A stretch of DNA of 64,000 nt from positions 34,290-98,289 of IMG/VR virus record IMGVR_UViG_3300029913_000009. One strand, 5' to 3'. The position numbers and the translations under genes were made by a program. Position 1 is the first letter of the stretch. Each line of letters starts with the position of its first letter. Under the pieces are notes generated by a model. It was not told where the DNA came from and did not search any database. It saw nothing but the letters and a program-made list of their open reading frames with translations. This stretch comes from a virus. Shown piece after piece: positions 3,638-55,402 of the stretch.

Positions 3638-3639
3638 TG

Positions 3640-6600
3640 TTACTTTGACCCTTCAATGACTGCCTTCACACGGTCTACTGAAACGTTGAGCTTTTTAGCA
3701 ATCGCAGCCGCGCTGTATAGTCCCTCGGCGTTTAGCTCCTTTACCCTTTTTGCAAGAGTGCCTGAAGGGATAGGAGCGTGCATTTCGGCGGTGATTGCTT
3801 GTCTTGGCATGTTGGCACCAAGGTCGGCAAGATCACCGAATCCCAGTTCCATTTCCACAGACTCATCATTTTCGTCACCGGCAGAGGCTGTGTGTTCTTC
3901 ATCAAGGTTGCGTTGATTCGGATTGCGTTCCAAGTCTTTAATAACCTGCCGAACCCAAAAGCTGACATCGCTTGAACCAATTTCTTCCAAGTGTCCGAGT
4001 TGGCTCGTAGCTTCATAGACGCCTTCCAGCACAGCATCTTCACCATACTTCTTAATCAAGTCAGGCATCGTGCGTGTAATACGTCCAAGGGTGGCTGTTC
4101 CCGCTGAGGTAAGATCATCGTAGGTGACCCAAGCAGCTACTTTGGCAGCTTCTTCAACTGACTTGGTAGGTTGCTTAATGTCTCTGTCAACCGTATCAGG
4201 GCTCACGACTTTGGACTTCGCTTCGGAAATGTCCCCACTTACATCAGAGCTAACCTTATCACCACACATGGAGTCGATTTCTTCACAAGCCGTCTTGTCA
4301 CTCCAAGAGTGGCTGCAACCGAAGCACTTGAGTTCTCCTGCCTTTGTCCTGAAGCCCGACTTGTTACCACACTCTGGACAGTTGACTTTGACGGTCTTCT
4401 TTTCGCTGATCCCCGAAGCCCCCTTAGAAAGGTGTGGGAACCTTTTATACATTTCCGTCCAAACACGGCCTTGACGGCCATCTTCATCAATTTGTTGGTT
4501 AACTTCTCCCATATACTCCGAACGAGCCTGATTCATTTCACGACTGTAGAGAGCATTAAATACCTTTTGTTCTTCTGGACTCAGCTTGGGCTTATTCTGA
4601 ACCAGCTTATCCTTAACCCAGTCAATAGCACCACCAACCTTACCGGGGTCATAGTCCACCCCATGTTCCATGCGAGTGAGGAATGGCTCAAGTATGGAGC
4701 TATCCATGTTGTTTTCTTCAAGTGCTTTAATTGGAGTCTTACCACCAAATTCTTTGCTTGGAGTTGTCATCCATTGATGAGCTTTTCTTGGGTCACCAAA
4801 GGCATCAACAACTCGACTGTACCATTCCATATCGGCATACTTGACGGGGAAGCTGGCAACCTTAGCCGCCTCTTCAACTGACTTGGTAGGTTGCTTGATG
4901 TCCTTGTCAACCGTGTTAGGACTGACCACCTTAGACCTTGCTTCTGCGATGTCGGGACGGACGCAATCAGCCTTCTTGGTAGGTTTGAAAATCCGACCTG
5001 TGTCATTACAGGTTTTGCACTTATATTGCGAGTTCCCTGCGCCCCTTGGAGCCGTAAATGATGTACCCTTGGACTTACAATCGGGGCACTCGGTGAAATC
5101 ACCCCCCAATTCTTCAGCAACCTTTACAGTGGCAACTCTCCGTCCTGTGAGCTTGTAAATAGTCTCCTGCGCCTCCTCTACACTAGGACCGCCAAGCAGA
5201 GCTTTATTTGGGTTTTTCACAGTGTCTAATGCAATACGAAGCTTATGCTTATCAGGCACTGATAAATCCCGAATGCGTGGGCTCATTTTTATAGCGTCAT
5301 ACTTGGCTGGATGAATATCTTCATCGGCTTTTTTTGCAGCAGCCTGCTTTTCTTCTTTGGGCGCTTCCTTCTTCGGCTCTTCCTTGGGCTTGTTCTTGTT
5401 CTGGAACAGTTTGGATTTTGGTCCCTTGGATTCAGGCTTCGATTCAGATTTTTCCACACTTTCCACAGACTTTTCAACAGGCGCAGATTCTCCCTTGTCT
5501 GTCTTTGTCTCTGACTTGCCTTTACTTTCACCGGGAAGCTTCACCTGTGGAGCTTCGCCGAAGTCTTCCATGATGTCGCCCCAAATGCTTTCTTCAGTCA
5601 GAGGTACATCTGCGTTCTTCTGACGACCGGCATACCTCTTGTTCAGTTCGTCTTCACGCTTCTGATTAGCTGCTTTGGTCTTAGATGACATCGCGGTGTA
5701 GCCGGTGTCAAGGTCACGCATAATCTCACTTGCGATGTGTTCTGATGCGGCCTTGCGTTCTTCTTCAGCACGACGAGGCACACCCGTCTCGTCAATTGCA
5801 ATACCGATTGGGCTATTGACTTTGGGATCACCCTTTTGAGAGACAGTATCCACCTTTACAGCAATACCCTTCTCAGCGTGCTCGTGAGCCGAGGTTCCCG
5901 GTCCGACATTCGTGAATGGAGTCTCAAACGGAGCAGAGGCTATACGTTGTCCATTCTTGTCATAGAACCCTGTGCCCTTGGCAGAGTGGCAATCACGACA
6001 TTCAGTTTGACCTTCACACTCCTGACGGAACTTTGAGTCACATGGCCCATCAAATCCAGCCAAGTCCCCACCTTGACACGGCACAGACGGGAGGGACTCC
6101 CAGTCCTTGCGGCTGTCGTACACTTGGTTAGCTGCTGCATAATCCTTGACCACGCCGTAATTACCCGCCGTCTTATTTGCAGAACCAAAGAGGTTGCGTT
6201 GGATGGAGGGTGTCTCACGTTCAACGTTCTTTTTTGGAGCCCAAAAGCGGTCGGTAACCATTCCTTTACCACAAAATTGCAACCCTCGGTTGGCATCTGC
6301 GGCAGACAAGTTCGGGCACATCTTGAAAGCATCAACTTCTGTTCCACAATCAGGGCACTGAACCGCCGAGTGGTCAAACTTGGCGTTCTTTGCTTGAGCA
6401 GAGCCGATTTGACGATTCCTCAAAGGCTCAGGTTCACGTTCAACACTCTTCTGCGGAGCACTCCAGAGGTTTACTCCCTTATTAAGAATCGCGTTTTGAC
6501 CCTTGCCGCAGAACTGCATTCCCATGTGCGCGTCAGAAACATTCGGGCACATCTTGAAAGCATCAACTTCTGCTCCACAGTCTGGGCAGTTGGTTGCAGC

Positions 6601-7617
6601 ATAATCAAACTTAGCGGTCTTATCCGTTGTGGCTTCCTTGTTCTTTGCTTGGTGGGTTGTTTTAGGGTCGTGGGTTCCTGCCTCCTTGCCCTTCTGAATG
6701 AAGTCGCGGAAACCTTCATCAGACTTGGTGTTTTCAATACCTTCAATCTGAGGGACTTCAGCATTGCCCTCGTTGGAACCACTCGGTCCCTTGAAGTCAG
6801 CGACCTCGTCCATAGACTCTGTATCAGGCAGCGTGGCTTCAGTAAGAGCCGTATCGAGAGCCTCGAACACATTCAATTCCTGAGGATCGAGGACTTCCTT
6901 GGTGATGGCATCCGCCGTCTTCTTGGTGAGAAAGACCTTCTCCTTTACCCAACCTCCCTGCTTGACCAACTCAGGGTATGCTCTCAGTGGGTTATCGCTG
7001 AGGAACGGGTAAGTCAGCTTCGGGGTGATATCAGTGATATCCAACTTACGGGTGTCAACTGTGGTCATGAGAGCATCGAAAGCCGAGGACACAGCCGGGT
7101 TGAAGTAGGCCGAGAACACGAGATGACGAAGCAGATTGGATAGCTTGTCGTCATCGCTGACAAACTTGAAGCCAACGTACTCACGGATGTTTGACCAGTT
7201 AGGGGCGAAGATAACCAAAGAGGTCACCTTACCATCATCTCCAGTGAACAAGGTTTCCTTGATGGTAGTGTAATCGGCTTGCGAATACTCATCGAATTCG
7301 GTGTCACCAATCTTGTTGGTGATAAGATCGGCTACCTCTTCCCCGAGGTTGAGTGTCTTGACCACTGTACCGAAGAGTAGAGCGACCGGGAAGGTGTTGC
7401 GAACATCGCATACCTTTGATGGTACGATGTAAATGCGACCGATGCTGATGTTCTGACGAAAGCCTTTGTAGAAAACCTCAAAGGATTTCACATTGCCAGA
7501 CGTACGGGCTTCCTTCTCCCCACTTTTGACCGCTTCTACTACTTTTGCGAGGAGTCCTTCATTTATTGTGAAAGACTGAAATGACTTTAAGGCGATACTG
7601 TTTCCGCTTGCGGCCAT
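3640..7617 (-). CDS. very large multidomain protein (1325 aa) with several C4 zinc ribbons, Lys/Glu-rich linkers, internal repeats and a C-terminal sigma-region-4-like HTH
   Basis: CPDCGxEVDAFKMCPN..FCGKG is repeated twice (DNA about 6290-6365 and 6527-6600). There are also CPECGNK..CFGCSH and CPDCKSKG..CKTCNDTG ribbons. A duplicated block SKVVSPxTVDxDIKQPTKSVEEAAKVA corresponds to DNA about 4152-4250 and 4869-4965. An AGGAG Shine-Dalgarno site precedes the ATG. Confidence 0.65.
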   Translation of the reverse strand: MAASGNSIALKSFQSFTINEGLLAKVVEAVKSGEKEARTSGNVKSFEVFYKGFRQNISIGRIYIVPSKVCDVRNTFPVALLFGTVVKTLNLGEEVADLITNKIGDTEFDEYSQADYTTIKETLFTGDDGKVTSLVIFAPNWSNIREYVGFKFVSDDDKLSNLLRHLVFSAYFNPAVSSAFDALMTTVDTRKLDITDITPKLTYPFLSDNPLRAYPELVKQGGWVKEKVFLTKKTADAITKEVLDPQELNVFEALDTALTEATLPDTESMDEVADFKGPSGSNEGNAEVPQIEGIENTKSDEGFRDFIQKGKEAGTHDPKTTHQAKNKEATTDKTAKFDYAATNCPDCGAEVDAFKMCPNVSDAHMGMQFCGKGQNAILNKGVNLWSAPQKSVEREPEPLRNRQIGSAQAKNAKFDHSAVQCPDCGTEVDAFKMCPNLSAADANRGLQFCGKGMVTDRFWAPKKNVERETPSIQRNLFGSANKTAGNYGVVKDYAAANQVYDSRKDWESLPSVPCQGGDLAGFDGPCDSKFRQECEGQTECRDCHSAKGTGFYDKNGQRIASAPFETPFTNVGPGTSAHEHAEKGIAVKVDTVSQKGDPKVNSPIGIAIDETGVPRRAEEERKAASEHIASEIMRDLDTGYTAMSSKTKAANQKREDELNKRYAGRQKNADVPLTEESIWGDIMEDFGEAPQVKLPGESKGKSETKTDKGESAPVEKSVESVEKSESKPESKGPKSKLFQNKNKPKEEPKKEAPKEEKQAAAKKADEDIHPAKYDAIKMSPRIRDLSVPDKHKLRIALDTVKNPNKALLGGPSVEEAQETIYKLTGRRVATVKVAEELGGDFTECPDCKSKGTSFTAPRGAGNSQYKCKTCNDTGRIFKPTKKADCVRPDIAEARSKVVSPNTVDKDIKQPTKSVEEAAKVASFPVKYADMEWYSRVVDAFGDPRKAHQWMTTPSKEFGGKTPIKALEENNMDSSILEPFLTRMEHGVDYDPGKVGGAIDWVKDKLVQNKPKLSPEEQKVFNALYSREMNQARSEYMGEVNQQIDEDGRQGRVWTEMYKRFPHLSKGASGISEKKTVKVNCPECGNKSGFRTKAGELKCFGCSHSWSDKTACEEIDSMCGDKVSSDVSGDISEAKSKVVSPDTVDRDIKQPTKSVEEAAKVAAWVTYDDLTSAGTATLGRITRTMPDLIKKYGEDAVLEGVYEATSQLGHLEEIGSSDVSFWVRQVIKDLERNPNQRNLDEEHTASAGDENDESVEMELGFGDLADLGANMPRQAITAEMHAPIPSGTLAKRVKELNAEGLYSAAAIAKKLNVSVDRVKAVIEGSK

Positions 7618-22164: not shown

Positions 22165-22220
22165 GATTAGTATATCGGAGACACCAACGTTTTGGATACT
22201 ATTTCAGGAAATTATTTCCA
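22165..22220 (-). promoter_or_regulatory. phage promoter copy (TATCCAAAAC-N9-CTCCGATATACTA) with Shine-Dalgarno-containing leader
   Basis: Conserved motif. Confidence 0.6.
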
Positions 22221-22779
22221 TGTCCTTCTCGTTCGCAATTTCAGCCTCGTACAGCTTACGAGCGTAGGCGATGTGCTCCTCGGTCTGAGGGACGCCGCCA
22301 GCGTTCAACTGGAGAAACAGCCAGAGAACATCCGACCGCTTGACTTTACCACGTTGTAGCGTAGCCGCTTGAATCATGATGTCGCAGAACGCATATTTGT
22401 CCCGCCGTGAAAGCTGATACCACGTCTTACCTTCAAACTCGAAGCGACCCTCGTAAAATTCCGTGATAGCCCGAAGCCGTTGCTTGCCGTCGATGACTTC
22501 CAGCCGATACTCACGGTAGTTCTCATCCTCAAGGAAAACGAACTTGCCAATGTCAGCCCGGTTGAAAATGCTCCGAATAAGTTTCTGCTTGTCTTCCAGA
22601 GTCCAGACATAGCCCCGCTGATAGTCGGGGCTGTCGATGAGACCCCGGTGGTACACCATGTGAATCAGGCTATCCAACGAAGTCTGGATGTAGTTGGTGT
22701 TGAGGCGTGGCCGGGAGAACGCTGTGTCGCTTTCGAGTGCGAGAGGGTTGGCCTCAGTCCACCAACAAAGACGCGGCAT
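22204..22779 (-). CDS. DUF262/ParB-like nuclease-fold protein (DGQQR motif: VIDGKQRL)
   Basis: The ..IFNRADIGKFVFLED..YRLEVIDGKQRLRAI pattern matches the DUF262 N-terminal domain of GmrSD-like proteins. Confidence 0.55.
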   Translation of the reverse strand: MPRLCWWTEANPLALESDTAFSRPRLNTNYIQTSLDSLIHMVYHRGLIDSPDYQRGYVWTLEDKQKLIRSIFNRADIGKFVFLEDENYREYRLEVIDGKQRLRAITEFYEGRFEFEGKTWYQLSRRDKYAFCDIMIQAATLQRGKVKRSDVLWLFLQLNAGGVPQTEEHIAYARKLYEAEIANEKDMEIIS

Positions 22780-23448: not shown

Positions 23449-24224
23449 GTTGGATTCAGCCTTCAAATCCAGTAAGTCTACAGGTTCCGCCATCCACACG
23501 TGAGTGCCATCAGGGTTGGATTCAGCCTTCAAATCCAGTGGGTATACGGGCAACCCAAAGACATCACGGCTGCGTTCCGTAGGTGGATTTAGCCTTCAAA
23601 TCCAGTAAAGTCTACAGGGACAGTACCAAGGCAAGCTTCGTTGGATTCAGCCTTCAAATCCAGTAAGCGGTGCAGCAATATGTTGGATTCAGCCTCCAAA
23701 TCCAGTATACAGGTTTCGACGTTCAACGGTACATCCCTCCGTTGGATTCAGCCTCCAAATCCAGTAAATCTACAGGTGTGCCAAAGCTGACTGTTGGATT
23801 CAGCCTTCAAATCCAGTAAGTCTACAGGGCTTTACTCAGACTCCGAATACCTGATCTAGTTGGATTCAGCCTTCAAATCCAGTAAGTCTACAGGGAGAAC
23901 CAATGACGGCCCTCAGTATGCTGGGTTGGATTCAGCCTTCAAATCCAGTAAGTCTACAGGTGTTGCCACCTATGGCACAACCCAAGTTACGTTGGATTCA
24001 GCCTTCAAATCCAGTAAGTCTACAGGGTTGATGTCTTTTCATTAACAATCATCTCTGTTGGATTCAGCCTTCAAATCCAGTAAGTCTACAGGTCTCCATT
24101 GATTTTATCCTCGGGCTCTCCCGTTGGATTCAGCCTTCAAATCCAGTAAGTCTACAGGTTAGGAACCTATATACGCATCGGCGGCTATGTTGGATTCAGC
24201 CTTCAAATCCAGTAAGTCTACAGG
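23449..24224 (-). CRISPR. CRISPR array: 13 repeats of 36 nt (GTTGGATTCAGCCTTCAAATCCAGTAAGTCTACAGG on the plus strand), spacers of 30 nt; repeats 2-6 (23515-23776) are degenerate or truncated and spacers 3-6 are shortened to 21, 14, 27 and 16 nt
   Basis: Eight perfect repeats (23449, 23793, 23859, 23925, 23991, 24057, 24123, 24189) separated by unique 30-nt spacers, plus degenerate copies. The repeat contains the hairpin TGGATT-CAGCCTTCA-AATCCA. Orientation is inferred from the promoter at 24240-24272 and the position of the decay, so transcription probably runs on the minus strand. Confidence 0.9.
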
Positions 24225-24239
24225 AGGATAGCCCCAACC

Positions 24240-24272
24240 CATAGATTATACACCAATTGCCTTAACTAGAAC
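24240..24272 (-). promoter_or_regulatory. variant phage promoter driving the CRISPR array (CTAGTTAAGGC-N8-TATAATCTA)
   Basis: The minus strand reads CTAGTTAAGGCAATTGGTGTATAATCTATGGG and then the first repeat 12 nt later. It resembles the consensus CTAGCCAAAAC..TATACTA. Confidence 0.5.
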
Positions 24273-24310
24273 CTCAGGAAAACGCGAGAAGAGTATTGAT
24301 TATCCTCTCG
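24262..24310 (-). terminator. bidirectional hairpin terminator between the 856-aa gene and the array
   Basis: CGCGAGA-AGAGTATTGATTATCC-TCTCGCG stem with T/A tracts on both sides. Confidence 0.6.
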
Positions 24311-24322
24311 CGTTTCTCGTTT

Positions 24323-26893
24323 TTAAGCTGACGCGGCCAGAGCTTTGTCAACAAGGGCTTCAACAACCTCCTCGACCGTCACGCCACGCTTGAATGCGAC
24401 GTGCTTGAGGATGGTTGTAAATTCGGCCAGTGATGCCCACGAGCGGTACTTCTGCGAAGCATCGGAAGCCATTTTGTCGCCCTTGTCCTTCTTCTTGGCG
24501 CGGGTCTCTTTCTCTGAAGCGTCCTTGAGGTTCAATTTCTTGTAAGAGATGGTTGACGCATGGTCGCAGATGCGGTGTGCGAGAACATAGTAGTAAGCTT
24601 TACGGCGTCCCAACAGGTTCTCACGCACCATACGCTCTACAGTGCGAAGGCGGTCGTTGAACTCAAGCCAGCGAAGCCAGAGACGAAGGAGTTCGGGGTT
24701 AGAGCCGAGCGGTTTGGACTTCTCGCTCTGACGACTTGGGTTAGTGTTGTAGGTTGTAGTTAGCGTCCCGGCACCAATGCGGAGTTCGTTGATGTAACGA
24801 ACCATGCCAGACTGGCGAACCATACGCCAACCTGCCGCGTCAACAATGTTCCGCTGCTCCTCAGTCATAAGCTTGTACCCCTCATCCTTGGCCGCGTTGA
24901 GCAGAAGGTCAAGCTGCTCCGGTAGTGACAAGAGGGTAGTCTTAAGCCAATTGTACGTCAAAGTATTTGTGCGGAAGTGTGCCTGAAGTTCTGCCTTCTG
25001 GGCATTTTTAATGGCTTCCTCACCCGGCCATCCGTATAACGTGCGGAATGCCAGTGTATACCCCGACTTGCGCGACCAAACGTTGCCCTTCTTCGTGCTG
25101 TCACATCCTTCAGCGAAGAGTCCTTCGGTCTTCCACTCTTCGCCGAGAGGCAAGTAGTAGTCGTTTGTCTGCCCGGTCGGAAGAGACTCGGTAACGATTT
25201 TCAACTGGTCGTCTTTCGCCAGCTTCCATCCGAGGGTGAGCTTTGCCGACCCGGTGCCCCGCGTATCGTACTTCTCGTTAGTCTTGACTTCTGCAAGGCA
25301 GAAGTTGAGGTAGCACTGGGGCACCTGCTTGGTCGCTGGTGCCGCAAGACCAGAGTTTCGACCATTTTGGTCGGCGTATTTAACCACTTTGCGCTTCTCT
25401 GTCTTGAAGGACACAATGACCTTTTTCACCTTAGCGTTCAGGTCAACATCATCACGGTGAACTAGGACGGCCAACTTGAAGGGGTCGGTGCCCTTGCCAT
25501 CGGTGAGTGAAACGCCGTGCAATGACCGCTTGGCAGCGCAGGAGCCCGGTGTCATAGGCTTGAACTCAGGTGTGACCACAAAGTCGTCGCCAACAGCCGT
25601 TACGGTGTGACGAAATGCTTTTCCAGTGTTGATTGAATCCAGCGGGGCGGTGAACTGGATATGCGGAACCTTGTTATCCAGCACTTCCCGGAGGGTTTTC
25701 TTTCCACGTACGTCGTAGGAGACCTGCCATGTGTCCTCATCAATGCGGATGTGTTTCGGCCAGCCTTTGTCGTAAGGACTATTCTTCGATTCACGCTGTT
25801 TCAACACAGCTTGAAAGCGAGTGGATATTTCACCCATTTCTGCGGGGGGGACAGCCAGCATCTTGCCGATGTAATTGAAGAGGTTACCGCTCCATGGCTT
25901 TGCACCATTCATCCAGACCTCCCCCATGCCATCGGCCCAGTTGGTTTCCTCTATATTGGTGAAAAGCGCCTTGAGTGCTTTGAGGGGCTCTTTGTGGCGT
26001 TTCAATTTACCCAGTTCTGTTTTCAGATAATTAGCGAGAAGGGTCTCCGGGTCGCTCTCAGCCACCCCACAAACGAGAACCTTAACCTTTTCTTCCTTCT
26101 CATACTTGTCGAGGCGGTATATGAAGTAGCGAAGGTCAGAAAAGTTGGCTGGGTATTTGGCGTTGTCGCGAAGATTTTTCGGGAGAGGTAACTTAGCCTC
26201 GCGTCCACGAGTAGCATAGTGAGCGTTCATGGAGTCCACAATCACTTTGCGGATGCGCTCGATGATGGCCGTGGATTCGGCTGACAACGTCGTGCGACGG
26301 TATGCAGACACCTCCCTATCGTCGGTTAGAAGCATGGCAACACTTTTGATGTGTGGTGTCCAGTTTGTTGTTGTGTCTCCAACATCCTCGCTCTTCTGCA
26401 AAGTCCATTGGAGTAACAAGGCGAGAATATTCCATACCAAGCGCCAGTTGGTCTTCTTATCTGCGGCCCACTTGGGTAAAACTGCACCGGAGGTCTCCAC
26501 ACCACGATGATGGTAGAACAGCCGGTTCTTGAGGGTGAGGTAGCCGGTCCCTTTGGCTGCTATTTCTTCCTTGGTCTTGTTACCATGGTTGCGGTTCTCG
26601 CCTTGGAAGAAAAGGTCACCGTTCTCAAGCTTCTTGGTTTGCACACCGCGTTCGATGTTGAACACTCGGCTGTTGTGGTTGGTGAAAATGATGGTTAAAG
26701 GGGTGTTCTCAGCGAGAGTGAGCCCCAAGGGATAAGACTCTCCCTTGAATGCTACTTGATTGTCGGAGAACGTCATACTTCCAGATTTGACGAGTGCCAA
26801 AGGACGGCCCTTCTTGGCAAGTTCGGGGTGGGTGCTCATCGTCAGGTAGAACACCCCGTCGATACTGTGTGCTTTTACTTCTGAGAAATTCAT
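24323..26893 (-). CDS. large uncharacterised protein (856 aa) immediately upstream of and co-oriented with the CRISPR array; candidate CRISPR-associated protein of unknown type or an unrelated phage protein
   Basis: Long ORF with an AAGAAGGG Shine-Dalgarno site, last gene of an operon. No RuvC D/E/D motif, no zinc finger, no HNH. Only one weak R-x4-H (RLFYHH). Confidence 0.6.
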   Translation of the reverse strand: MNFSEVKAHSIDGVFYLTMSTHPELAKKGRPLALVKSGSMTFSDNQVAFKGESYPLGLTLAENTPLTIIFTNHNSRVFNIERGVQTKKLENGDLFFQGENRNHGNKTKEEIAAKGTGYLTLKNRLFYHHRGVETSGAVLPKWAADKKTNWRLVWNILALLLQWTLQKSEDVGDTTTNWTPHIKSVAMLLTDDREVSAYRRTTLSAESTAIIERIRKVIVDSMNAHYATRGREAKLPLPKNLRDNAKYPANFSDLRYFIYRLDKYEKEEKVKVLVCGVAESDPETLLANYLKTELGKLKRHKEPLKALKALFTNIEETNWADGMGEVWMNGAKPWSGNLFNYIGKMLAVPPAEMGEISTRFQAVLKQRESKNSPYDKGWPKHIRIDEDTWQVSYDVRGKKTLREVLDNKVPHIQFTAPLDSINTGKAFRHTVTAVGDDFVVTPEFKPMTPGSCAAKRSLHGVSLTDGKGTDPFKLAVLVHRDDVDLNAKVKKVIVSFKTEKRKVVKYADQNGRNSGLAAPATKQVPQCYLNFCLAEVKTNEKYDTRGTGSAKLTLGWKLAKDDQLKIVTESLPTGQTNDYYLPLGEEWKTEGLFAEGCDSTKKGNVWSRKSGYTLAFRTLYGWPGEEAIKNAQKAELQAHFRTNTLTYNWLKTTLLSLPEQLDLLLNAAKDEGYKLMTEEQRNIVDAAGWRMVRQSGMVRYINELRIGAGTLTTTYNTNPSRQSEKSKPLGSNPELLRLWLRWLEFNDRLRTVERMVRENLLGRRKAYYYVLAHRICDHASTISYKKLNLKDASEKETRAKKKDKGDKMASDASQKYRSWASLAEFTTILKHVAFKRGVTVEEVVEALVDKALAASA

Positions 26894-26958
26894 AGAGTCC
26901 CTTCTTTAGAATCTTGTGCATAATCTTGTTCGAGCCATCATCGGCGCTTCAGACAATT

Positions 26959-27258
26959 CTACAAGGTTACAGTATCCGCGTCAACATGCCACTCACCCTT
27001 CTTAAGTTGGCCGTTGGGTGTGTCCTTGGTCTGACGATACACAGTGACGCCATCAACCGTATACTCTTCGAACACGCGGTGTCCGGTTCCCTCGACCTTG
27101 ATGAGGCTCTCCGCATGTTCGTTTGTCTTCGCAAACACAAAGTATGTACCAAATTTGGTTGCCACAACTCGCGGCACTCCAGTCAATACTTTGGTTCCCT
27201 TCGGGGTCACAAGAGACTGTACCCCACCACGCTGCAATTCCAGTTTTAACTTTGCCAT
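26959..27258 (-). CDS. hypothetical protein (99 aa, start MAKLKLE after AAGGGGAGG)
   Basis: Shine-Dalgarno site plus the ATG at 27258; sits between the helicase gene and the 856-aa gene. Confidence 0.5.
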   Translation of the reverse strand: MAKLKLELQRGGVQSLVTPKGTKVLTGVPRVVATKFGTYFVFAKTNEHAESLIKVEGTGHRVFEEYTVDGVTVYRQTKDTPNGQLKKGEWHVDADTVTL

Positions 27259-27262
27259 GTTA

Positions 27263-30200
27263 CTACCTCCCCTTTCGTATTTCAAACAGGAGATGCCGGT
27301 TAGGCATCTGTTTTGGTTCTTTGAATTTCAGACCGTTGAGTTTGAATGCTTTGGTTAAATTCTCCCGTACCCAAAGTTTACCACCAGCTTTCTCAGATTG
27401 GTAGGATTCAATAATGATGGCACGGCCTTTAGGAGCTAATAGCCGTGCCATTTCTCGGATGCTGCGTTCGTAATCCAACCGGAATATTGAAAGGACAGAC
27501 ACAATAAGGTCGAACGAACCATCAGGAAGTTTTGTTGCATTTCGGTCGAGTCGTAAAATTTGAGGGTACTCAATATACGCTTCCTCTGTCAAGAGCATGT
27601 CCACAAAAGTTACATTCTGGAGGCCAAGTTCCTGTGCATACTTAGGTTCAGTTGTACCGCAGCCCAAGCTTAGAATACGTAGGTTGGTGCTCTTCACTAC
27701 AAAGGTATCATACACAAGCTTGTACGCTTTGCTGGTGAGTTCATTGGCAGCATGATACTCAGCTAGATTATATGTTCTACCCGTGGTAGCGATAAGCAGG
27801 TCACCTTGCCGTTTGGGTGGCAGTGTGGCTGAGTGAGAGTTCGCATACAGCCGATGAACATCCATCATTACTGTTCTAGGTGGGGTGTACTTCCGAGGCT
27901 TGAGTGGCGTGGTAATATCCACAACGGTGGCAGCGGGGGTCACTTCCACTCCAGATAACCGCAAGATGTTATCCTTGTTCCTGAGGTACTCCTGTTCGAT
28001 ACGTTTTGGGTTAATAGGGACAATGGTTCCATCTAAAACAACCAAGCTGCTTCGCCGCCGCTGACACAGCCGTGACCAACGATTTTCGTGATACTCAGCA
28101 TCCTTCGCCAGCATTACGATGCACGCCACACCAGAATTCAAGAAGGGTGAGCCAATGCGGCGTATACGGCGATGAAGTTGCTCGAAGTTAGCGTAATGCC
28201 ACGGAGAGCCCATGATAAACATGGTGTCAGAAAGATTCTGAAGACCGTCCAGACCAACCGATAGGGGGGCACTGGCAATGAGGGTACATTTACCTTTATG
28301 CCTCTTAATGATTTTGAGCAGCTTGTCTTGCTTGTGCATCCCAGTGTAGATGTACACTGGGTACCCCGGTCTCATTTTCTCAGCCCATTCTTTCAGCACA
28401 AAGACAATTCGATTGCTTTTTGTGTCGGTGAACTGTGTATAAAGAATGGGGCATGAAGCTTCTACAAACGCTTTTTTAAGCACTGGATTGGATTCGATAA
28501 TCTCACACTGCCTCGGCAGCATTTCAACCTCCATGTCCAGTATCGTGCGACCCTCGGAAAGGATGTTCGATTGATACTGAGCCATAATGACGCAGTTCAC
28601 AACTGGGTCTTCGAAGAGTTCAACCTCTTCGTATACACCAAGAGTTATCGGCTTCACAATGGGTAGAAGGTTAGGATTGATGTAGAAGCGAAATCCATTG
28701 CGGAACAGAAACAAGCGGAGCTTCAAAAGGCCGGATACACCCTCGCCAGTTGCGTTCTTAAGTTCATCACCTGAGACTATCTCCAATACTCGAATAAGCT
28801 CTTCGGCCTCACACCGAATGGGGGTGGCTGACATGAGGTACCTCAAGCACCGAGGGTTAAGTTGTATTGCTGCACTAATAAGACGACAGTAATGATTCAG
28901 CCGTTTGGTACTGTCTATATCATCATTAGAGCCGGAGAATACTTGGGGCTCATCAGTGACAATCATATCCCAGCGAATCTTGGAAAGCTGGTCAATTAGG
29001 TCGGGGTTGTTCTGCACCGTGTACTCAGTTACTAGCACATAATTACGCCGCTTTGATTCCAACTTCTTGAGGTCGAATACGTCACGGCAGTTGAAGATGT
29101 TTTGCCTGTGCTCGTTCTCCCTCTTTGCCATCAGCTTCCATTGACTGTCGTTATCGTTATCGTTATCAATCGTAGATTTTGTACCGAGGATAAGAACATT
29201 CTCTAGTTCCAACTCCTTCGCAATTGCATATACGGTGCTGGTTTTTCCGGCTCCGGCCTCGCTTAGATTGAACCCAAGAAGATGTCCGCTGTGAGCGAAC
29301 CAATAAACGCAATACGCTTGCATCCAGTTGCGATTCTCGGTTCGGTAACGTTTCACCTGTTCAAAGAGGGTTGTAAATTGCTTACGAGTATCAGTCATGC
29401 ACTCAGCAAGGCACTGTTGTAAGCGTTCGAGACCGTGGAATTCTAAATGCATCCACAGTAACTGGTTCATCTGTTGTATTAACATCTCAGGTATATTTGC
29501 AGCCGTGCCATAGTATCCACTGGGGTACGTCCGCATCAATTTGTCAAGTTTTTTGATAGACGTGGGGATGTCTTCAGGTTTCGGGCATGTATCGGGGGGG
29601 CTAACCTTAGGGGTCTCAGGCTCCTTAGGGGTTTCTAGTAGTTGCCGCCGCTCATCGTCGTTCTTGCAGTCGCACAAACGTTGGATGAGAGTTTCGACCG
29701 ACAAGTTCAGTTTCTTCGCACATGCATCCAAGCAACCACCGTAGTCGCCAATGACAGCCAGCAAAAGATTTTGAAAAGCTGAACGTATTTCAACTGTTGC
29801 TGCGTGCGTAGCTTCCCGAGTCCACGCCAGCCGCTCTTCGATGTAGTTTGAATGGAGGAGATTCAACAACTCATCGGTTGTGATGTAGTCGGGAATTCCA
29901 AGATACTGCCCCCATTTGTTGTACCTGTTGAAGCGGTTGCCCCACTCGGGGTGTTCAATACTCGGGTTACGCAGTGCTCCAGCGATTACTTTTTTCTCAT
30001 CCCACAAACGAAGGCAATCCTCCTCCGTTCGTGCCCCCATTTCATATCGGGCTTTGCCATCCTGTATTAAGTCAGGAGCTAACGCCGGATTGAATCCGCT
30101 ACCGCATTCAATCAAAGTTGAACCCGGAGGATGATGCCAGTTAAGCCCCTTACACCTTCCACAAAAACAAAGTCGGGTTTGTGTGGGGATTTCGTAGGTG

Positions 30201-30319
30201 TACTCAATATCCCCCTTGACAAACCAATTTCCAATTTGGGCTCCCACCGGGAGTATTTCACCCTCACCCTTGTCGCGAACCAAAACTTGGTTATCAATTC
30301 GTACAATAGTCGATGCCAT
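27263..30319 (-). CDS. SNF2-family SF2 helicase fused to a C-terminal class I SAM-dependent methyltransferase (1018 aa), with an N-terminal Cys-rich region
   Basis: Helicase motifs: Walker A LSEAGAGKTST, motif II DEPQ, motif III LMSATP, motif VI EQLHRRIRRIGS. Methyltransferase motifs: motif I ILSLGCGTT, FDLIVS and LAPKG. A leaderless start follows the promoter at 30323-30385. Confidence 0.7.
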   Translation of the reverse strand: MASTIVRIDNQVLVRDKGEGEILPVGAQIGNWFVKGDIEYTYEIPTQTRLCFCGRCKGLNWHHPPGSTLIECGSGFNPALAPDLIQDGKARYEMGARTEEDCLRLWDEKKVIAGALRNPSIEHPEWGNRFNRYNKWGQYLGIPDYITTDELLNLLHSNYIEERLAWTREATHAATVEIRSAFQNLLLAVIGDYGGCLDACAKKLNLSVETLIQRLCDCKNDDERRQLLETPKEPETPKVSPPDTCPKPEDIPTSIKKLDKLMRTYPSGYYGTAANIPEMLIQQMNQLLWMHLEFHGLERLQQCLAECMTDTRKQFTTLFEQVKRYRTENRNWMQAYCVYWFAHSGHLLGFNLSEAGAGKTSTVYAIAKELELENVLILGTKSTIDNDNDNDSQWKLMAKRENEHRQNIFNCRDVFDLKKLESKRRNYVLVTEYTVQNNPDLIDQLSKIRWDMIVTDEPQVFSGSNDDIDSTKRLNHYCRLISAAIQLNPRCLRYLMSATPIRCEAEELIRVLEIVSGDELKNATGEGVSGLLKLRLFLFRNGFRFYINPNLLPIVKPITLGVYEEVELFEDPVVNCVIMAQYQSNILSEGRTILDMEVEMLPRQCEIIESNPVLKKAFVEASCPILYTQFTDTKSNRIVFVLKEWAEKMRPGYPVYIYTGMHKQDKLLKIIKRHKGKCTLIASAPLSVGLDGLQNLSDTMFIMGSPWHYANFEQLHRRIRRIGSPFLNSGVACIVMLAKDAEYHENRWSRLCQRRRSSLVVLDGTIVPINPKRIEQEYLRNKDNILRLSGVEVTPAATVVDITTPLKPRKYTPPRTVMMDVHRLYANSHSATLPPKRQGDLLIATTGRTYNLAEYHAANELTSKAYKLVYDTFVVKSTNLRILSLGCGTTEPKYAQELGLQNVTFVDMLLTEEAYIEYPQILRLDRNATKLPDGSFDLIVSVLSIFRLDYERSIREMARLLAPKGRAIIIESYQSEKAGGKLWVRENLTKAFKLNGLKFKEPKQMPNRHLLFEIRKGR

Positions 30320-30322
30320 TAC

Positions 30323-30385
30323 GTTATAGTACCTGAACTCGCTGGAGTTTGGCTGTAGATTTTAGTAATTATTTTTCGTCCTCAA
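30323..30385 (-). promoter_or_regulatory. variant phage promoter (AGCCAAAC-N9-TTCAGGTACTATA) heading the helicase/MTase - 99 aa - 856 aa operon
   Basis: The motif has a 5-nt gap to the ATG and an upstream AAAATAATTACTAAAAT tract. Confidence 0.55.
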
Positions 30386-33020: not shown

Positions 33021-34295
33021 TTACCTTTCCGCTTCGCTCTTGACGAAGGCTGCTGTTTCCTGCACCCCGGATTCGAACTTAGCGAAGCCGAGTGCCTGTT
33101 CGCGGGTGGTCAATGTGCCGTTTAATTGACCGAACTCCACCGCCCTTAAAACCGTGGTGAACATCGGCCCCGGCGTGAATCCCATCTCTATCAAATCCCG
33201 GCCAGAGACAAACGGTGATGGGCGTATGTCTTCCGGCGTTAATGCCCTGTACCGCAGTACTGCATCCATCCCTGCCTCTACACCGTTTGCAAAGCCCAAA
33301 CCTATGTTCTGCTCGAACAGGTCTACTGCATACGGCAGTACACCCTTCTCACGAGCCAACAGCTTGGTACCAGCCGGAGAGCCAATTGAACCTATGGCTT
33401 CCTGATTTCTAACCGCACCCAAGATGGCGTCACGTTCATCCGTAGACAGCTTGAAGCTGTCGCAGGTCAACGCTGCCATCTCGTTGGTCTGAGTATCAGC
33501 CAGCAACATCGCCAGACCCATCACGGGGTCGGTTGTTTGGAACATAGCGAACCGCTCCAGTGTAAAGGCGAAGCGCGTATCGGAAACACCGTCAGGCAGC
33601 AGACGACGCAGCAAACCAGTAGACGCCAACGCCGCCAACCCTCTGGCAGCGAACTTGGATGTGGTCAGCTTCTTCAACTCCTCCGCAACACGTTCGCGGG
33701 AGACGTTGACTATGCTGTCCACGTTCGCCTGTAGGGCCTTGAAGGTTTCCGCCTCTATCTCGAAGCCTAACTGACCAACGAAGCGAACCGCACGCAACAT
33801 CCGCAATGCATCTTCTTTGAAGCGCGTGTCGGCATTGCCGATACACCGGATGACCCGGTTTTCGATGTCATCCCTGCCGCCCACGTAGTCGAGGACGCCG
33901 AGACTGTAATCGGTCATGAGGGCATCAAACGGATTGGCTATCAGGAGCCCGTTCATGGTGAAGTCCCGCCGCTTTACATCTTCCTCGGCGGAATTGCTGT
34001 AGGTAACCTCATCGGGGCGACGGCCATCGCTGTAGGCACCGTCAGCACGATAGGTGGCGACCTCAAACTGAAACCCTCCCACCATCACCACCACGACGCC
34101 GAATGCAGCACCGACTGGTATGGTCTTATCAAACAGGGGAGTGACCTGCTCTGGACGGGCATTGGTTGTGATATCAAAATCCTTAGGAGTCCGTCCCATC
34201 ACAAAGTCACGAACACAACCACCAGCAAAGTAGGCTTCAAATCCTGCCTTGCGGAGGGTGTTCAACACGAATTCAGCGGCTTCTCTCATGTCCAT
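33021..34295 (-). CDS. cca: tRNA nucleotidyltransferase (CCA-adding enzyme) / poly(A) polymerase family
   Basis: N-terminal GGCVRDFVMGRTPKDFDITT and RDFTMNGL motifs of the class II Pol-beta nucleotidyltransferase head. Leaderless start after a promoter copy. Confidence 0.8.
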   Translation of the reverse strand: MDMREAAEFVLNTLRKAGFEAYFAGGCVRDFVMGRTPKDFDITTNARPEQVTPLFDKTIPVGAAFGVVVVMVGGFQFEVATYRADGAYSDGRRPDEVTYSNSAEEDVKRRDFTMNGLLIANPFDALMTDYSLGVLDYVGGRDDIENRVIRCIGNADTRFKEDALRMLRAVRFVGQLGFEIEAETFKALQANVDSIVNVSRERVAEELKKLTTSKFAARGLAALASTGLLRRLLPDGVSDTRFAFTLERFAMFQTTDPVMGLAMLLADTQTNEMAALTCDSFKLSTDERDAILGAVRNQEAIGSIGSPAGTKLLAREKGVLPYAVDLFEQNIGLGFANGVEAGMDAVLRYRALTPEDIRPSPFVSGRDLIEMGFTPGPMFTTVLRAVEFGQLNGTLTTREQALGFAKFESGVQETAAFVKSEAER

Positions 34296-34555: not shown

Positions 34556-35014
34556 TCATTGGCCTCCCGGCACTCGCAGATTGAAGTATTCGTCGCCACG
34601 GTCTGATGTCAAACAAAACCGGGTGTCAGCACCATGCTTGATGATGAGACTGGCGATGAATTCCCGGTAGTCGGCCAGCGTGGTCTCATGTCCGGTGACC
34701 TTAAGAGTCGTCCACACGATGCCGGGTGTGGAAATCATGACCTCTAGGTTGTTATTCTGAAACACCAACAAGCCGGGGTTTTGCTCCAGCCGGTAAAGAC
34801 GCCAAGCCCTCGCGGCAAGGCTTTCGCCGCCGTGGATTTGATGGGTCTCATTGTCAATGAGTCGCTCTACGACCTGCTCGAAAAGGTGTAGATTGACGGC
34901 CAAGCCAAAAATTAGATTGACGGCCAAGCCAAAAATTTCAGCGTACTTTACTCCCATCTCTTTGACGGTTTCGGGAGTGGCTTCGGGTAGTTGGTTGTAA
35001 ACGTCCAATATCAT
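34556..35014 (-). CDS. hypothetical protein (152 aa) containing a perfect in-frame 24-bp tandem duplication (IFGLAVNL x2)
   Basis: DNA 34889-34912 is identical to 34913-34936. Confidence 0.45.
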   Translation of the reverse strand: MILDVYNQLPEATPETVKEMGVKYAEIFGLAVNLIFGLAVNLHLFEQVVERLIDNETHQIHGGESLAARAWRLYRLEQNPGLLVFQNNNLEVMISTPGIVWTTLKVTGHETTLADYREFIASLIIKHGADTRFCLTSDRGDEYFNLRVPGGQ

Positions 35015-36502: not shown

Positions 36503-36853
36503 AGGCCGAGAAAACCAAAGACCAGCCGATTCTGCAAAGTAAAGCTGGGTGCCACCGCCGCGAGGGCGATGAGCATCAAGCCGCTGATGGCGTTCCCACC
36601 AGCTAGAAACCGACGAAGGGATGCCCCTCGTTGTTTCATCTGTGCGAGTTCATATTCATAATCACGACTCACTTTTTCATCCCCTTGGCAGTGAAACCGA
36701 TGCTGAAACAATAGATGGAAGAGAGGCCAAGAAGCGAGTACATCAACACAGCGTCGAAGGGGTTGACTGGGGGTTTGAATATGAACAGGAACACAAAGAG
36801 GGCGAACCCAAAGATGAATCCCATTCCCGCGACAAATGCTCGAAGTATTCCCA

Positions 36854-47277: not shown

Positions 47278-48318
47278 TCATCCCCATCTACTTCCTCCTC
47301 TGTGTGGGCGGTGGTTGAACCTTACAGGCTGGCTCATCCAATGCTCATCGGTTTGCACATGTCCCTTCCTCACCCACTTAGCCATAAGCCGGGGGAACTC
47401 CCTCAGAGTAAATCCTCGTGTGGGACGGAAGACTAGTCCTTCTTGCCGCTCAGGTACAAGACCGCTGGCGATGCTATCTATCAGCCCTTCCTCCCACACA
47501 CCCCGGTATAGAACCGGCACGGTGGGCAGGTCCAGTAGACCGGCATAGGTCTCGGTGTCATCCCATGACAGGCAGTTCTGCCCATGCCAGATGTTGAACA
47601 CATAGAAGTAGGAGGCGAGGTCATGGTACTCGATGGAATGAACCGCTGTGACATTTTCGCCGCAGACTCTGAAATTTTCAGGGATGTCGTGGGCAACCCG
47701 AGACCAGATTGCTTTTATGAAAGTGCGAGATGGATGAGTGCTAAATTCCAACGACCGGGCGTGCATATAATCCCGTGCCATGGTGGTATTCTCTCCATCA
47801 AGCTTCTCGGTAACGATGACTTCCAACCCGTCCCATTGGTCGGTGGTCGTGTGCATCCGGTCGTCATTTTGTAGACCGGGGGACGAAGGCCAATGAAAAG
47901 TTTTAGGGTACTTCACCTTGTCGGTGAATAGGTAGAGTTTGTTCCGCAGAGCCTTCTGCACTCCGGGCTCCAGAAACAATTCTCCCTGAAGTCGTTGACC
48001 GTTAGGCAAGATTCCGTTACCCCACTTATCGTACACACCATCTGCTTCAAAGTGTGGAGGGAGGCAAGGAACTGCGATTCCTGCTCGTTCACGAAGCGTT
48101 GCACAATCAATAGTGGTTGCTTCCGCCGCTTCGTGGCAGTCTGAACAAAGTGAGATTCCATTTGAAATTCTATACCCTCCATCTTCAAAAAGGCGTCTTT
48201 CCATAATGTGGTGAACATCGAGCCGAACACCAGACGAGCCGCAATGGGCACAAGTATTGTGGTCTCTGGCAAGAACCAGTCCCCTGAATTCGTCGCGAGT
48301 TAGGAGCGGTTCTTCCAT
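47278..48318 (-). CDS. HNH endonuclease domain fused to an ATP-dependent RNA-ligase-like nucleotidyltransferase
   Basis: N-terminal CAHCGS..DVHHIMERRLFEDGGY...CSDCH (HNH), paralogous to 49148-49411. C-terminal motif I TEKLDGENT (KxDGxN), motif IV EGLVFRP, motif V AKWVRK. Confidence 0.6.
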   Translation of the reverse strand: MEEPLLTRDEFRGLVLARDHNTCAHCGSSGVRLDVHHIMERRLFEDGGYRISNGISLCSDCHEAAEATTIDCATLRERAGIAVPCLPPHFEADGVYDKWGNGILPNGQRLQGELFLEPGVQKALRNKLYLFTDKVKYPKTFHWPSSPGLQNDDRMHTTTDQWDGLEVIVTEKLDGENTTMARDYMHARSLEFSTHPSRTFIKAIWSRVAHDIPENFRVCGENVTAVHSIEYHDLASYFYVFNIWHGQNCLSWDDTETYAGLLDLPTVPVLYRGVWEEGLIDSIASGLVPERQEGLVFRPTRGFTLREFPRLMAKWVRKGHVQTDEHWMSQPVRFNHRPHRGGSRWG

Positions 48319-55138: not shown

Positions 55139-55402
55139 TCATATTGTCCTGATAATCTTCACACCCCGCACGATGAGCAATACAGCAATCAGCAGGAGAG
55201 CAGCGAAAAGAAGGTGGCCTCCACCGAATGTGTTAGCGATGGCAAGGTTGAGCCACGCGATAAACAAAAAGACAGAGGCGATGAAGAACGTCAACACCGC
55301 GATAACCCCCTTGAACAAAGGTGTCATGCTCTCAGTCCTTTCGGGTTGGCCGGAGTGAAGGTGAAATTGGCTTAAACATGGGATAGTTCGCTTTTTACCC
55401 AA
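55139..55402 (-). CDS. small two-TM membrane protein (holin-like by shape only)
   Basis: VIAVLTFFIASVFLFIAWL and LLFAALLLIAVLLIV hydrophobic helices. Confidence 0.35.
   Translation of the reverse strand: MGKKRTIPCLSQFHLHSGQPERTESMTPLFKGVIAVLTFFIASVFLFIAWLNLAIANTFGGGHLLFAALLLIAVLLIVRGVKIIRTI

Follow-up and report, generated by a model that had tools for sequence, protein, structure and literature searches.

To our knowledge, all the Cas12m proteins described so far retain a TNB zinc finger and a RuvC-III segment with at least some of the triad positions. Proteins of this family (type V-M) bind DNA without cleaving it and silence transcription, need only a crRNA, form a 17-bp heteroduplex and process their pre-crRNA independently of RuvC (PMC11013384; PMC10442227), and in Cas12m2 the TNB domain and the RuvC pocket help to bind the non-target strand (PMC10442227). 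Their RuvC degeneration is stepwise, as seen in the triads HDD, HQK and NED (PMC10442227; PMC10691335). In the viral DNA analysed here, a stretch of 64,000 nucleotides that we call the window, a locus was found that probably encodes a compact Cas12m-like (type V) CRISPR system of a phage, in which the nuclease is fully inactivated and targets are silenced rather than cut. Like the systems of MmCas12m/Cas12m2 and GoCas12m, it has a 36-nt repeat with a predicted stem-loop, may work without a tracrRNA, is carried by a mobile element and is predicted to bind without cutting; no adjacent adaptation module was found. Unlike them, it resides on a phage instead of a plasmid, its effector has 856 aa versus about 600 aa and is neither compact nor equipped with a TNB domain within RuvC, the triad reads T/K/absent with the TNB and RuvC-III part deleted, and the gene belongs to a conserved operon with an SF2 helicase-methyltransferase (MTase) and a 99-aa protein.

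The first-pass annotation had placed three open reading frames and an array in a row on one strand, and all of them proved real, with positions and strand as described (Table 1). The stop codon of the 1018-aa gene is separated from the ATG of the 99-aa gene by 4 nt, and 65 nt lie between the stop of the latter and the ATG of the 856-aa gene. The hairpin proposed to lie between the 856-aa gene and the array promoter is also present; it begins about 8-13 nt past the stop codon and has 13-nt arms (92% complementary) and a T-run. The related loci L001 and L019 carry a hairpin at the corresponding place with different stem sequences, i.e., with compensatory changes. A TATAAT, shared by L001 at the aligned position, precedes the first repeat (24224) and may act as the array promoter. 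On the other hand, the single variant phage promoter suggested at 30323-30385 could not be confirmed, as no sigma-70-like site was found in this region, which overlaps the 3′ end of an upstream co-oriented ORF (stop at 30369) and leaves an intergenic gap of only 49 nt. The three genes may belong to a longer transcript.

Table 1. Features of the dCas12 locus (positions in the window).
Feature	Position	Strand	Basis or remark
Helicase-MTase gene, 1018 aa	27263-30319	-	ORF
99-aa gene	26959-27258	-	ORF from ATG; 108 aa if upstream TTG used
856-aa gene (dCas12, V-M-like)	24323-26893	-	ORF
Terminator-like hairpin and T-run, just past dCas12 stop	arms 24280-24292 / 24303-24315	-	
Array leader with -10-like TATAAT (24245-24250)	24225-24279	-	sequence inspection
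Regular part of CRISPR array	23793-24224	-	7 repeats, 6 spacers, then 16-nt truncated spacer
Degenerate array trailer	23449-23792	-	6 units

The 856-aa protein had been regarded as a new kind of protein if CRISPR-associated at all. Judged from its sequence, it is instead a Cas12/TnpB-family (type V) effector, placed nearest to Cas12m (V-M/V-U1) by profile models. The alignment of the dead clade with TNB-containing relatives by hhalign reached a probability of 99.9% (E 1.6e-34, 417 columns), and a phmmer search of 1.84 billion representatives returned 10 matches, of which those outside the clade itself were all TnpB/Cas12 proteins, most with a Pfam Cas12f1-like TNB domain; both methods thus detected homology to the RuvC-containing TnpB/Cas12 core (WED-REC-RuvC architecture, RNase H fold). 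The top PADLOC model was Cas12u1 (V-U1 = V-M), with E 1.3e-5 for the 856-aa protein and E 2.4e-22 for P0003, a RuvC-intact relative whose best solved relatives are Cas12m, TnpB and Cas12f. Without profiles, similarity to Cas12m was detectable only across about 100 C-terminal residues. The AF2 model, built from a 10-sequence alignment, was of moderate quality (pLDDT 69, pTM 0.48) and gave low TM-scores of 0.2-0.3 against Cas12m.

The Cas12 identity had been overlooked owing to replacement of the catalytic D and E and loss of the zinc-finger/RuvC-III part. In the 856-aa protein, the RuvC-I position is Thr ('KLTLGWK', about residue 553), the RuvC-II position is Lys ('ISYKKLNL', about residue 785-786) and the RuvC-III segment is missing. 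Residue by residue, the earlier statement that the RuvC triad and zinc finger are lacking was thus right. An intact RuvC triad is likewise missing from several accepted type V subtypes (V-K, V-M and V-C variants). Across the three lineages of the protein described below, the RuvC-I column holds T, K or V versus D/E in TNB-containing relatives, and the RuvC-II column holds K, T/K or W/N. Where relatives have a beta-strand followed by the TNB domain, the chain ends about 15 residues past that strand; both it and P0001 terminate upstream of the CxxC...C zinc finger and the D-x-x-N-A motif, both of which are kept in P0004 (860 aa). On this evidence, the 856-aa protein is a degenerate, C-terminally truncated, nuclease-dead Cas12, and a degeneration series would run from a D-E-D relative through a form with D and E lost and the zinc finger kept to the truncated form.

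Among about 15 billion proteins, only two other lineages of the 856-aa protein were found (55% and 23-26% identity), and in both P0001 (55%) and P0004 (23%) the gene order is the same, and the genes are immediately followed by an array whose repeat belongs to the same family. Homologues of all three genes and the repeat family therefore occur together in both other lineages, as the first-pass annotation had proposed to check, and the four-part block of helicase-MTase, ~99-aa protein, dCas12 and array is contiguous although its flanks are rearranged between lineages. The helicase-MTase orthologues share 55% (L001) and 26% identity (L019, full length, E 1e-76), and the 99-aa protein is kept at the same position with 72-74% (L001/L002) and 37-40% (L019). 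The 856-aa protein itself did not differ between the contigs that encode it, which come from several samples (19 read, 10 inspected). The array-adjacent effector position claimed for it is occupied in three of three lineages, and the array is not an orphan, because every known lineage of the protein has a same-family array immediately downstream.

The array comprises 13 repeat units (23449-24224) in the same orientation as the genes, with the 36-nt repeat CCTGTAGACTTACTGGATTTGAAGGCTGAATCCAAC. Repeats 1 to 7 are identical copies with six 30-nt spacers between them; the six trailer units keep the 3′ hairpin core with decayed 5′ repeat halves and spacers of about 6 to 31 nt, and one of them is absent from the population variant L008. 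At its 3′ end the repeat carries a hairpin (UGGAUU/AAUCCA) followed by AC (predicted RNA fold, -6.1 kcal/mol), and the repeats of L001 and L019 are conserved over the 3′ 24 nt and differ in the 5′ 12 nt. No anti-repeat, which would be a sign of a tracrRNA, was found near the locus. The repeat core was absent as an array from 185,579 reference genomes and from IMG/VR, and its occurrence in JGI metagenomes was confined to these phages.

Contigs with identical P0001 differ in their leader-proximal spacers and share the older spacer series, apart from internal deletions. Such gene-proximal differences beside identical protein copies therefore indicate ongoing spacer acquisition; this turnover was seen only in the sister lineage, the window-type population being clonal. 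Scanning the remaining 96 ORFs of the window revealed no cas1, cas2 or cas4. The addition of new spacers next to the genes would presumably depend on Cas1-Cas2 from the host, acting in trans, or from another part of the phage genome. Searches for spacer targets in the window itself, in the retrieved loci, in cultured phages and in IMG/VR identified none; the sole matches, one of 17/21 and one of 20 nt failing in the last 10 nt, are at chance level.

In the silencing system that we favour, the array would be transcribed on the minus strand from its own putative promoter, yielding crRNAs that begin with a 5′ handle, the conserved 3′ half of the repeat with its hairpin, and continue with the spacer, without a tracrRNA. 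The Cas12 derivative would load this crRNA and locate complementary, presumably PAM-adjacent, dsDNA. Lacking the RuvC catalytic residues, the zinc-finger/TNB domain and the RuvC-III segment, it is predicted to be unable to cut; by analogy with Cas12m, it would remain on the DNA and prevent the target, most likely a rival phage, a plasmid or a gene for host defence, from being transcribed or replicated. The R-loop would have to be stable without the TNB domain and the RuvC pocket. More speculatively, the bound complex may bring in the co-transcribed helicase-MTase and the 99-aa protein as accessory factors.

The 1018-aa protein begins with a region specific to its clade (~1-330; CxCxxC motif), continues with an SF2 helicase core (~350-760; motifs GAGKT, DEPQ, SAT and QxxxRxxRxG) and ends in a class I SAM methyltransferase (~870-1018; signature GCG...D...LP..sFD). 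It had been described as an SNF2-helicase/methyltransferase fusion. The methyltransferase part holds (Pfam Methyltransf_11, E 2e-7; other matches of Methyltransf_25/8/23 type), and the helicase part holds as SF2, with ResIII (1e-3), Helicase_C (2e-3) and SNF2-rel (0.045) all below the Pfam cut-offs and PHROG 62 'DNA helicase' at 2e-15. Since the SNF2-rel_dom match scored 13 bits versus a cut-off of 24.9, 'SF2 helicase' is the safer label, while some remote homologues do carry PF00176. The suggested resemblance to DarB-type or type ISP enzymes was rejected: the domain is of Methyltransf_8/11 type, neither the NPPY/DPPY-type methyltransferase expected of such enzymes nor the target-recognition domain (TRD) and nuclease expected of type ISP were found, and Pfam, NCBIfam, PADLOC and PDB gave no match to an N6-adenine or C5 DNA-MTase family, a nuclease or a TRD. 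The 99-aa protein had a sub-threshold DUF7352 match as its only family match, and none in PDB or PHROG.

These partners raise a second reading, which we consider unlikely, namely that the dead Cas12 serves mainly to direct the helicase-MTase, through the 99-aa protein as an adaptor, to sites chosen by the crRNA, where the helicase translocates and displaces polymerases or unwinds DNA and/or the MTase methylates nucleic acid, in the manner of Cascade-Cas3, type IV-A CasDinG and the reported Cas12m-Cas3 hybrids. The four-part block is kept in three lineages despite 23-55% identity and rearranged flanks, with only 4 nt between the first two genes, but the three lineages are all related phages and the adjacency may be inherited synteny. 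The ~330-residue N-terminus of the helicase-MTase, a possible adaptor, aligns with the L019 orthologue, and BLAST matches to remote homologues start only at about residue 280-350. Moreover, helicases have repeatedly joined nuclease-less CRISPR effectors (PMC11656645), as in Cas12m with Cas3 and a phage RuvC-dead Cas9 with an SNF2 helicase (PMC10910872). Against this, about 80 remote fusions with ResIII, Helicase_C and Methyltransf_8 occur in phage-like contigs and bacterial genomes, and all three neighbourhoods inspected lacked Cas12, a 99-aa homologue and an array; the role of the helicase-MTase is unproven because its family is widespread without Cas12, and it is a candidate partner only. 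The closest RuvC-intact relatives (P0003) also lack it, an SNF2-like gene 5 kb upstream there being unrelated, its MTase lies outside the known DNA-MTase families, and in L008 its gene carries a nonsense codon (R650*) while dCas12 stays intact. A stricter form, in which the truncated protein is purely an addressing module and loads the helicase-MTase, through the N-terminal domain of the latter and/or the 99-aa protein, onto DNA or nascent RNA chosen by the crRNA, seems less likely still.

A counter-defence decoy, which would sequester host type V crRNA or pre-crRNA or compete for targets like an anti-CRISPR, is very improbable. It has a precedent in a phage-encoded RuvC-dead Cas9 proposed as an anti-CRISPR (PMC10910872; PMC11656645), and adaptation genes are absent from the window; however, that dCas9 has no array, whereas this locus has its own, with a putative promoter and polarised spacer turnover, and since the repeat core forms no array in the reference genomes, no matching host system is known. 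Least credible is that gene and array are functionless relics among unrelated phage genes: the lost catalytic residues and C-terminal domains, a half-degenerate array with irregular spacers and the lack of spacer targets in the databases and loci searched would fit decay, but the ORF is full-length without frameshifts in three lineages down to 23% identity, many positions outside the RuvC site are invariant, the protein is identical between contigs, the leader, terminator and promoter-like elements are conserved, and leader-end spacers still turn over in the sister lineage.

The proposed binding-only Cas12m-like system can also be compared with other nuclease-less systems. TldR and dead TnpB/Cas12f derivatives share the TnpB fold, the loss of RuvC residues, often a C-terminal truncation, and RNA-guided DNA binding (PMC10705468; PMC10691335; PMC13472631), but TldR-type proteins are small (~300-450 aa), lack a CRISPR array and use one omega-RNA-like guide against fixed host targets (flagellin, transporter genes, sigma-factor partners), in contrast to 856 aa and a multi-spacer array with turnover. 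Type IV-A (CasDinG), Cas12m-Cas3 and phage II-C2 dCas9 with SNF2 likewise place a non-cutting effector beside an SF1/SF2 helicase on a mobile element (PMC11656645; PMC10910872); the helicase here, however, is unrelated to DinG or Cas3, is fused to a SAM methyltransferase and belongs to a family mostly without CRISPR, and the dCas9-SNF2 system has no array. Unlike Cas12k (V-K) and CasMu-V, which work with Tn7- and Mu-type transposition genes, the locus has no transposase partner. A TnpB at 40.7 kb is unrelated.

If the silencing reading is true, Cas12m-like degeneration reaches an end point here, with no RuvC residues, zinc finger or RuvC-III but an evolving array kept, and a phage, beyond plasmids, maintains a binding-only CRISPR system. 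The locus raises the questions of how much of the RuvC/TNB lobe an R-loop needs, how spacers are taken up without local cas1-cas2 and whether nuclease-less class 2 effectors recruit helicases or modification enzymes; if the addressing module were true, the phage would possess a natural helicase/methylation system guided by RNA, for use against its competitors or the defences of its host. A naturally DNase-free Cas12 could also offer a scaffold for CRISPRi, base editing or epigenome editing, albeit not a compact one (856 aa).

The three genes lie beside the CRISPR array on one strand, with positions and orientation exactly as the first-pass annotation gave them. The stop of the 1018-aa gene is separated from the 99-aa start by 4 nt, and the 99-aa stop from the 856-aa start by 65 nt. 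A promoter that had been proposed to drive the trio was not confirmed: no sigma-70-like site was found within 30323-30385, and a co-oriented ORF precedes the 1018-aa gene with only 49 nt between.

Positions of the trio, the array and further features in the window
Feature	Positions	Strand	Remarks
1018-aa helicase-methyltransferase ORF	27263-30319	-	
99-aa ORF	26959-27258	-	
856-aa ORF	24323-26893	-	
Hairpin	24280-24315		13-nt arms and T-run, after the 856-aa stop
TATAAT	24245-24250		between hairpin and first repeat (24224)
CRISPR array	23449-24224	-	13 units; strand is that of the repeat reading
GmrSD_N (DUF262) gene	22204-22779	-	just downstream of the array
TnpB, 402 aa	40736-41944	-	canonical; OrfB_IS605 and Cas12f1-like TNB domain
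End-processing/ADP-ribosylation genes	33021-34295, 37940-39445, 47278-48318, 55372-56265	-	
1325-aa ORF	3640-7617	-	antitoxin domain at residues 938-986
851-aa ORF	60360-62915	-	Major Vault Protein shoulder (E 4e-23) and Vault_3 repeats
Tandem repeat	34889-34937		24 nt, perfect, 2 copies, TAGATTGACGGCCAAGCCAAAAAT

Pfam, NCBIfam, PHROGs and PDB sequences, searched directly, gave no match to the 856-aa protein; a word-indexed search returned one homologue only, to which a profile query added none, and no related locus was found in IMG/VR with its profile. When 1.84 billion cluster representatives were searched exhaustively with phmmer, 10 proteins matched, including the 55% identical orthologue P0001 (844 aa) and one fragment of the 856-aa protein itself. 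The remote relatives were P0003 (731 aa, E 1e-11), P0004 (860 aa, 2e-9), P0005 (740 aa) and five proteins of 486-582 aa, and six of these eight contained the Pfam Cas12f1-like TNB domain. The best solved relatives of P0003 were Cas12m, TnpB-like Fanzor, TnpB and Cas12f. A profile of the window protein, P0001 and P0004 (the dead clade) was aligned with a profile of the six TNB-containing relatives at 99.9% probability (E 1.6e-34, 417 columns). Cas12u1, which is V-U1 and now V-M, was the best PADLOC effector model for both the window protein (E 1.3e-5, residues 742-844) and P0003 (2.4e-22). A single-sequence AlphaFold model was useless (pLDDT 35), and a moderately confident one was obtained from the 10-sequence alignment (pLDDT 69, pTM 0.48). 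The first-pass annotation had suggested comparing a predicted structure with Cas folds, and Foldseek against the PDB placed Cas12m2 and Cas12m at ranks 1-4 (E 1e-11 to 3e-9, probability 1.0), followed by Cas12b, Cas-lambda, TranC, Fanzor and TnpB. Because relatives, profile alignment, PADLOC and Foldseek agree, the 856-aa protein is a Cas12-family effector nearest Cas12m among the Cas12 and TnpB-type proteins compared; what had been taken for a possible new kind of protein is a degenerate Cas12m-like Cas12 with no new fold. It may fall within V-M or within a further inactivated subtype such as V-O or V-P (PMC12669027). The resident TnpB was ruled out as a specific relative (hhalign probability 0.1%); the two TnpB-fold genes of the phage are therefore independent of each other.

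The state of the nuclease was read from an alignment of the dead clade with active-looking relatives. The RuvC-I Asp ('aaiDlGwR'), which is D/E in the relatives, is Thr in the window protein (KLTLGWK), Lys in P0001 and Val in P0004, and the RuvC-II Glu ('IIIENLDL'), E in the relatives, is Lys (ISYKKLNL), Thr/Lys and Trp/Asn, respectively. The TNB zinc finger and RuvC-III are present in the relatives and in P0004 (CxxC...C..H; 'DRYENRA'). In the window protein and P0001 the chain ends ~15 residues past beta-strand 'VTVEEV', so that neither the CxxC...CxxC zinc finger nor the 'DQDxNAA' RuvC-III motif is reached. The earlier statement that the protein has neither triad nor zinc finger was thus correct at the motif level. 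Taken together, these proteins form a degeneration series, from D-E-D with a zinc finger (P0003 and P0005, 731-740 aa), through loss of D and E with the zinc finger retained (P0004), to truncation (window protein and P0001). Described Cas12m clades carry HEK/HQK, HDD or DED/NED (PMC10442227), and the degeneration in the window protein exceeds all of them. This nuclease-dead Cas12 (dCas12) is phage-borne and has a helicase-methyltransferase as candidate accessory; no natural Cas12 of its lineage is more reduced.

As the dCas12 is extremely rare, its co-occurrence with an array could be checked exhaustively. The sister-phage contigs encoding P0001 (L001-L006) carry a 1050-aa helicase-methyltransferase (55% identical), a 99-aa homologue (72%), the 844-aa protein and an array of ~2.3 kb and >35 units with the repeat GTTTTATACCTACTGGATTTTATGGCTGAATCCAAC. 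On the P0004 contig (L019), the helicase-methyltransferase has 1062 aa and aligns with the whole 1018-aa protein at 26% identity (E 1e-76), and the homologue of the 99-aa protein has 95 aa (37-40%). This contig also carries the 860-aa protein, a terminator hairpin and a leader rich in A/T, and stops within a first repeat, CCTGTAGTCTTAGTGGATTTGTAGGTTGAA. The results of tblastx between the window and L001 showed that the flanking genes are rearranged and the four-part block of trio and array is contiguous. A homologue of the GmrSD_N gene lies upstream of the trio in L001 (2995-3834), in the opposite orientation. Co-occurrence of homologues and array, which the first-pass annotation had proposed to check, was found beside both P0001 and P0004, with a repeat of the same family. 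The gene-array linkage is kept in all known lineages, and the array is therefore no orphan; the 856-aa protein holds the effector position, as had been supposed.

The window repeat is 36 nt long (CCTGTAGACTTACTGGATTTGAAGGCTGAATCCAAC, - strand reading). Its first seven copies are identical and separated by 30-nt spacers, and the last six units have the 3' hairpin core retained, decayed 5' halves and spacers of ~6-31 nt. The lineages agree in the 3' 24 nt of their repeats (hairpin UGGAUU/AAUCCA plus AC) and diverge in the 5' 12 nt, as do the degenerate units within each array; this pattern would be expected if the 3' part serves as the crRNA 5' handle, type V style. Reading the repeat as Cas13b-like or Cas12a-like was given up when protein homology indicated Cas12m. 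No tracrRNA or anti-repeat was found in the window locus, where inverted repeats were only at chance level, and Rfam and tRNA scans over the window gave no match. Cultured phages gave no megablast match to the operon, either. The repeat core had 0 matches in IMG/VR and, in GTDB genomes, single matches only (about the number expected by chance). None of 185,579 reference genomes had an array of it, and in JGI metagenomes arrays came from the sister phage only; hence the window array was not copied from any known host array.

P0003, the nearest RuvC-intact relative, is encoded on a 211-kb plasmid-like contig (Ga0374055_0000721, L017), with a PRTRC/ThiF-type cassette on one side and SSB/DnaB genes on the other. 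Its array (L017 12384-12988) has 9 units, a 36-nt repeat (GTTCTCAGATTCAATAAGTGCAGTTCACACTGCAAC) with a 3' hairpin and the ending CAAC, and 33-38-nt spacers. With its D-E-D triad and zinc finger, this 731-aa protein and its array are an enlarged Cas12m-like system, apparently uncharacterised. The contigs of P0005 and P0008 were too short for gene context.

Contigs with identical P0001 share the older spacer series and differ in the gene-proximal spacers. The L001/L003 arrays start with two private spacers, those of L002/L025 with a different single one, and that of L004 with another followed directly by shared spacer 11, at which the L006 array starts. These differences are the signature of polarised acquisition and internal deletion, and by this reading of the spacers the array is alive. 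The window-type population is clonal (99.96-100% identity), and its arrays are identical except for one degenerate unit lost in the variant L008 (8760-8845). No Cas1, Cas2 or Cas4 was found among the other 96 ORFs of the window; adaptation must thus be supplied by the host or by another region of the phage.

Protospacer searches of the window, the loci compared with it, phage records and IMG/VR were all negative or at chance level. With blastn-short over the window and all loci, the only match was that of one sister-phage spacer, 17/21 at window 36574-36591, and it was attributed to chance; 33 concatenated spacers had no match in 50,697 phage records. Searching IMG/VR with five leader-proximal spacers as 20-mers gave one exact 20-nt match, of the newest L002/L025 spacer (first 20 nt) to L043 2309-2328 (IMGVR_UViG_3300032243_000741); it is probably due to chance because the other 10 nt agree at 3/10 only.

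The best-supported reading is that the dCas12 would interfere by binding only, like Cas12m. Cas12m is guided by crRNA alone (36-nt repeat-derived scaffold and 20-nt guide), requires a PAM, forms a 17-bp heteroduplex and leaves DNA uncut, silencing by roadblock (PMC10442227, PMC11013384). Its pre-crRNA processing is RuvC-independent (PMC11013384), so crRNA maturation need not fail with the RuvC residues lost here. If a 17-bp requirement applies here, even the 16-23-nt spacers of the degenerate units might still be usable. The turnover of spacers speaks for targets that change (competitors, defences) and against a fixed regulatory target.

The 1018-aa protein contains the SF2 helicase motifs GAGKT, DEPQ, SAT and QxxxRxxRxG, with weak Pfam matches (ResIII, Helicase_C, SNF2-rel) and a match to PHROG 62 'DNA helicase' (2e-15), and, at the C-terminus, a class I SAM methyltransferase (Methyltransf_8/11/25 type); the DarB-like or type ISP-like nature first suggested found no support. 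Its N-terminal ~330 residues are common to the L019 orthologue, whereas remote homologues align by BLAST only from ~residue 280-350 onwards. An SNF2-like gene near P0003 is unrelated to the 1018-aa protein. The adjacency kept in three related phages suggests a possible functional link between the helicase-methyltransferase and the CRISPR module. Recruitment of the helicase-methyltransferase by the dCas12 has precedents in CasDinG, Cas12m-Cas3 hybrids and a phage dCas9 and SNF2 pair (PMC11656645, PMC10910872), but seems unlikely here: the ResIII+Helicase_C+Methyltransf_8 fusion recurs in ~80 remote homologues, from phage-like contigs as well as bacterial genomes, and the three neighbourhoods inspected had no Cas12, 99-aa homologue or array; moreover, L008 carries a nonsense change (AGA->TGA, R650*) in the helicase-methyltransferase gene (2225-5278) with the dCas12 gene intact. 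The 99-aa protein had no match in a PDB profile search and no informative homologue in family and PHROG searches.

In gene content the window resembles the non-structural part of a large phage genome. It encodes RNA ligases, endonuclease VII-like and HNH proteins, the canonical TnpB and a ClpX-like ATPase, along with a DNA ligase, a CCA-adding enzyme and a PARP-like protein. The 1325-aa protein has an Xre/MbcA/ParS C-terminal toxin-binding domain, and the neighbouring 911-aa and 867-aa ORFs had no informative matches. In the set for RNA/DNA-end processing and ADP-ribosylation, one gene is for a CCA-adding/PolyA_pol enzyme and another for a PARP-like protein that includes a PARP regulatory domain; both also stand in synteny in L019, upstream of its trio. 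The other two genes encode an ATP-dependent DNA ligase and an RNA ligase carrying an HNH insert. Outside this set the window has a further RNA ligase gene and one for a His_Phos_1 phosphatase. The vault-like 851-aa protein is unusual in a phage-like genome.
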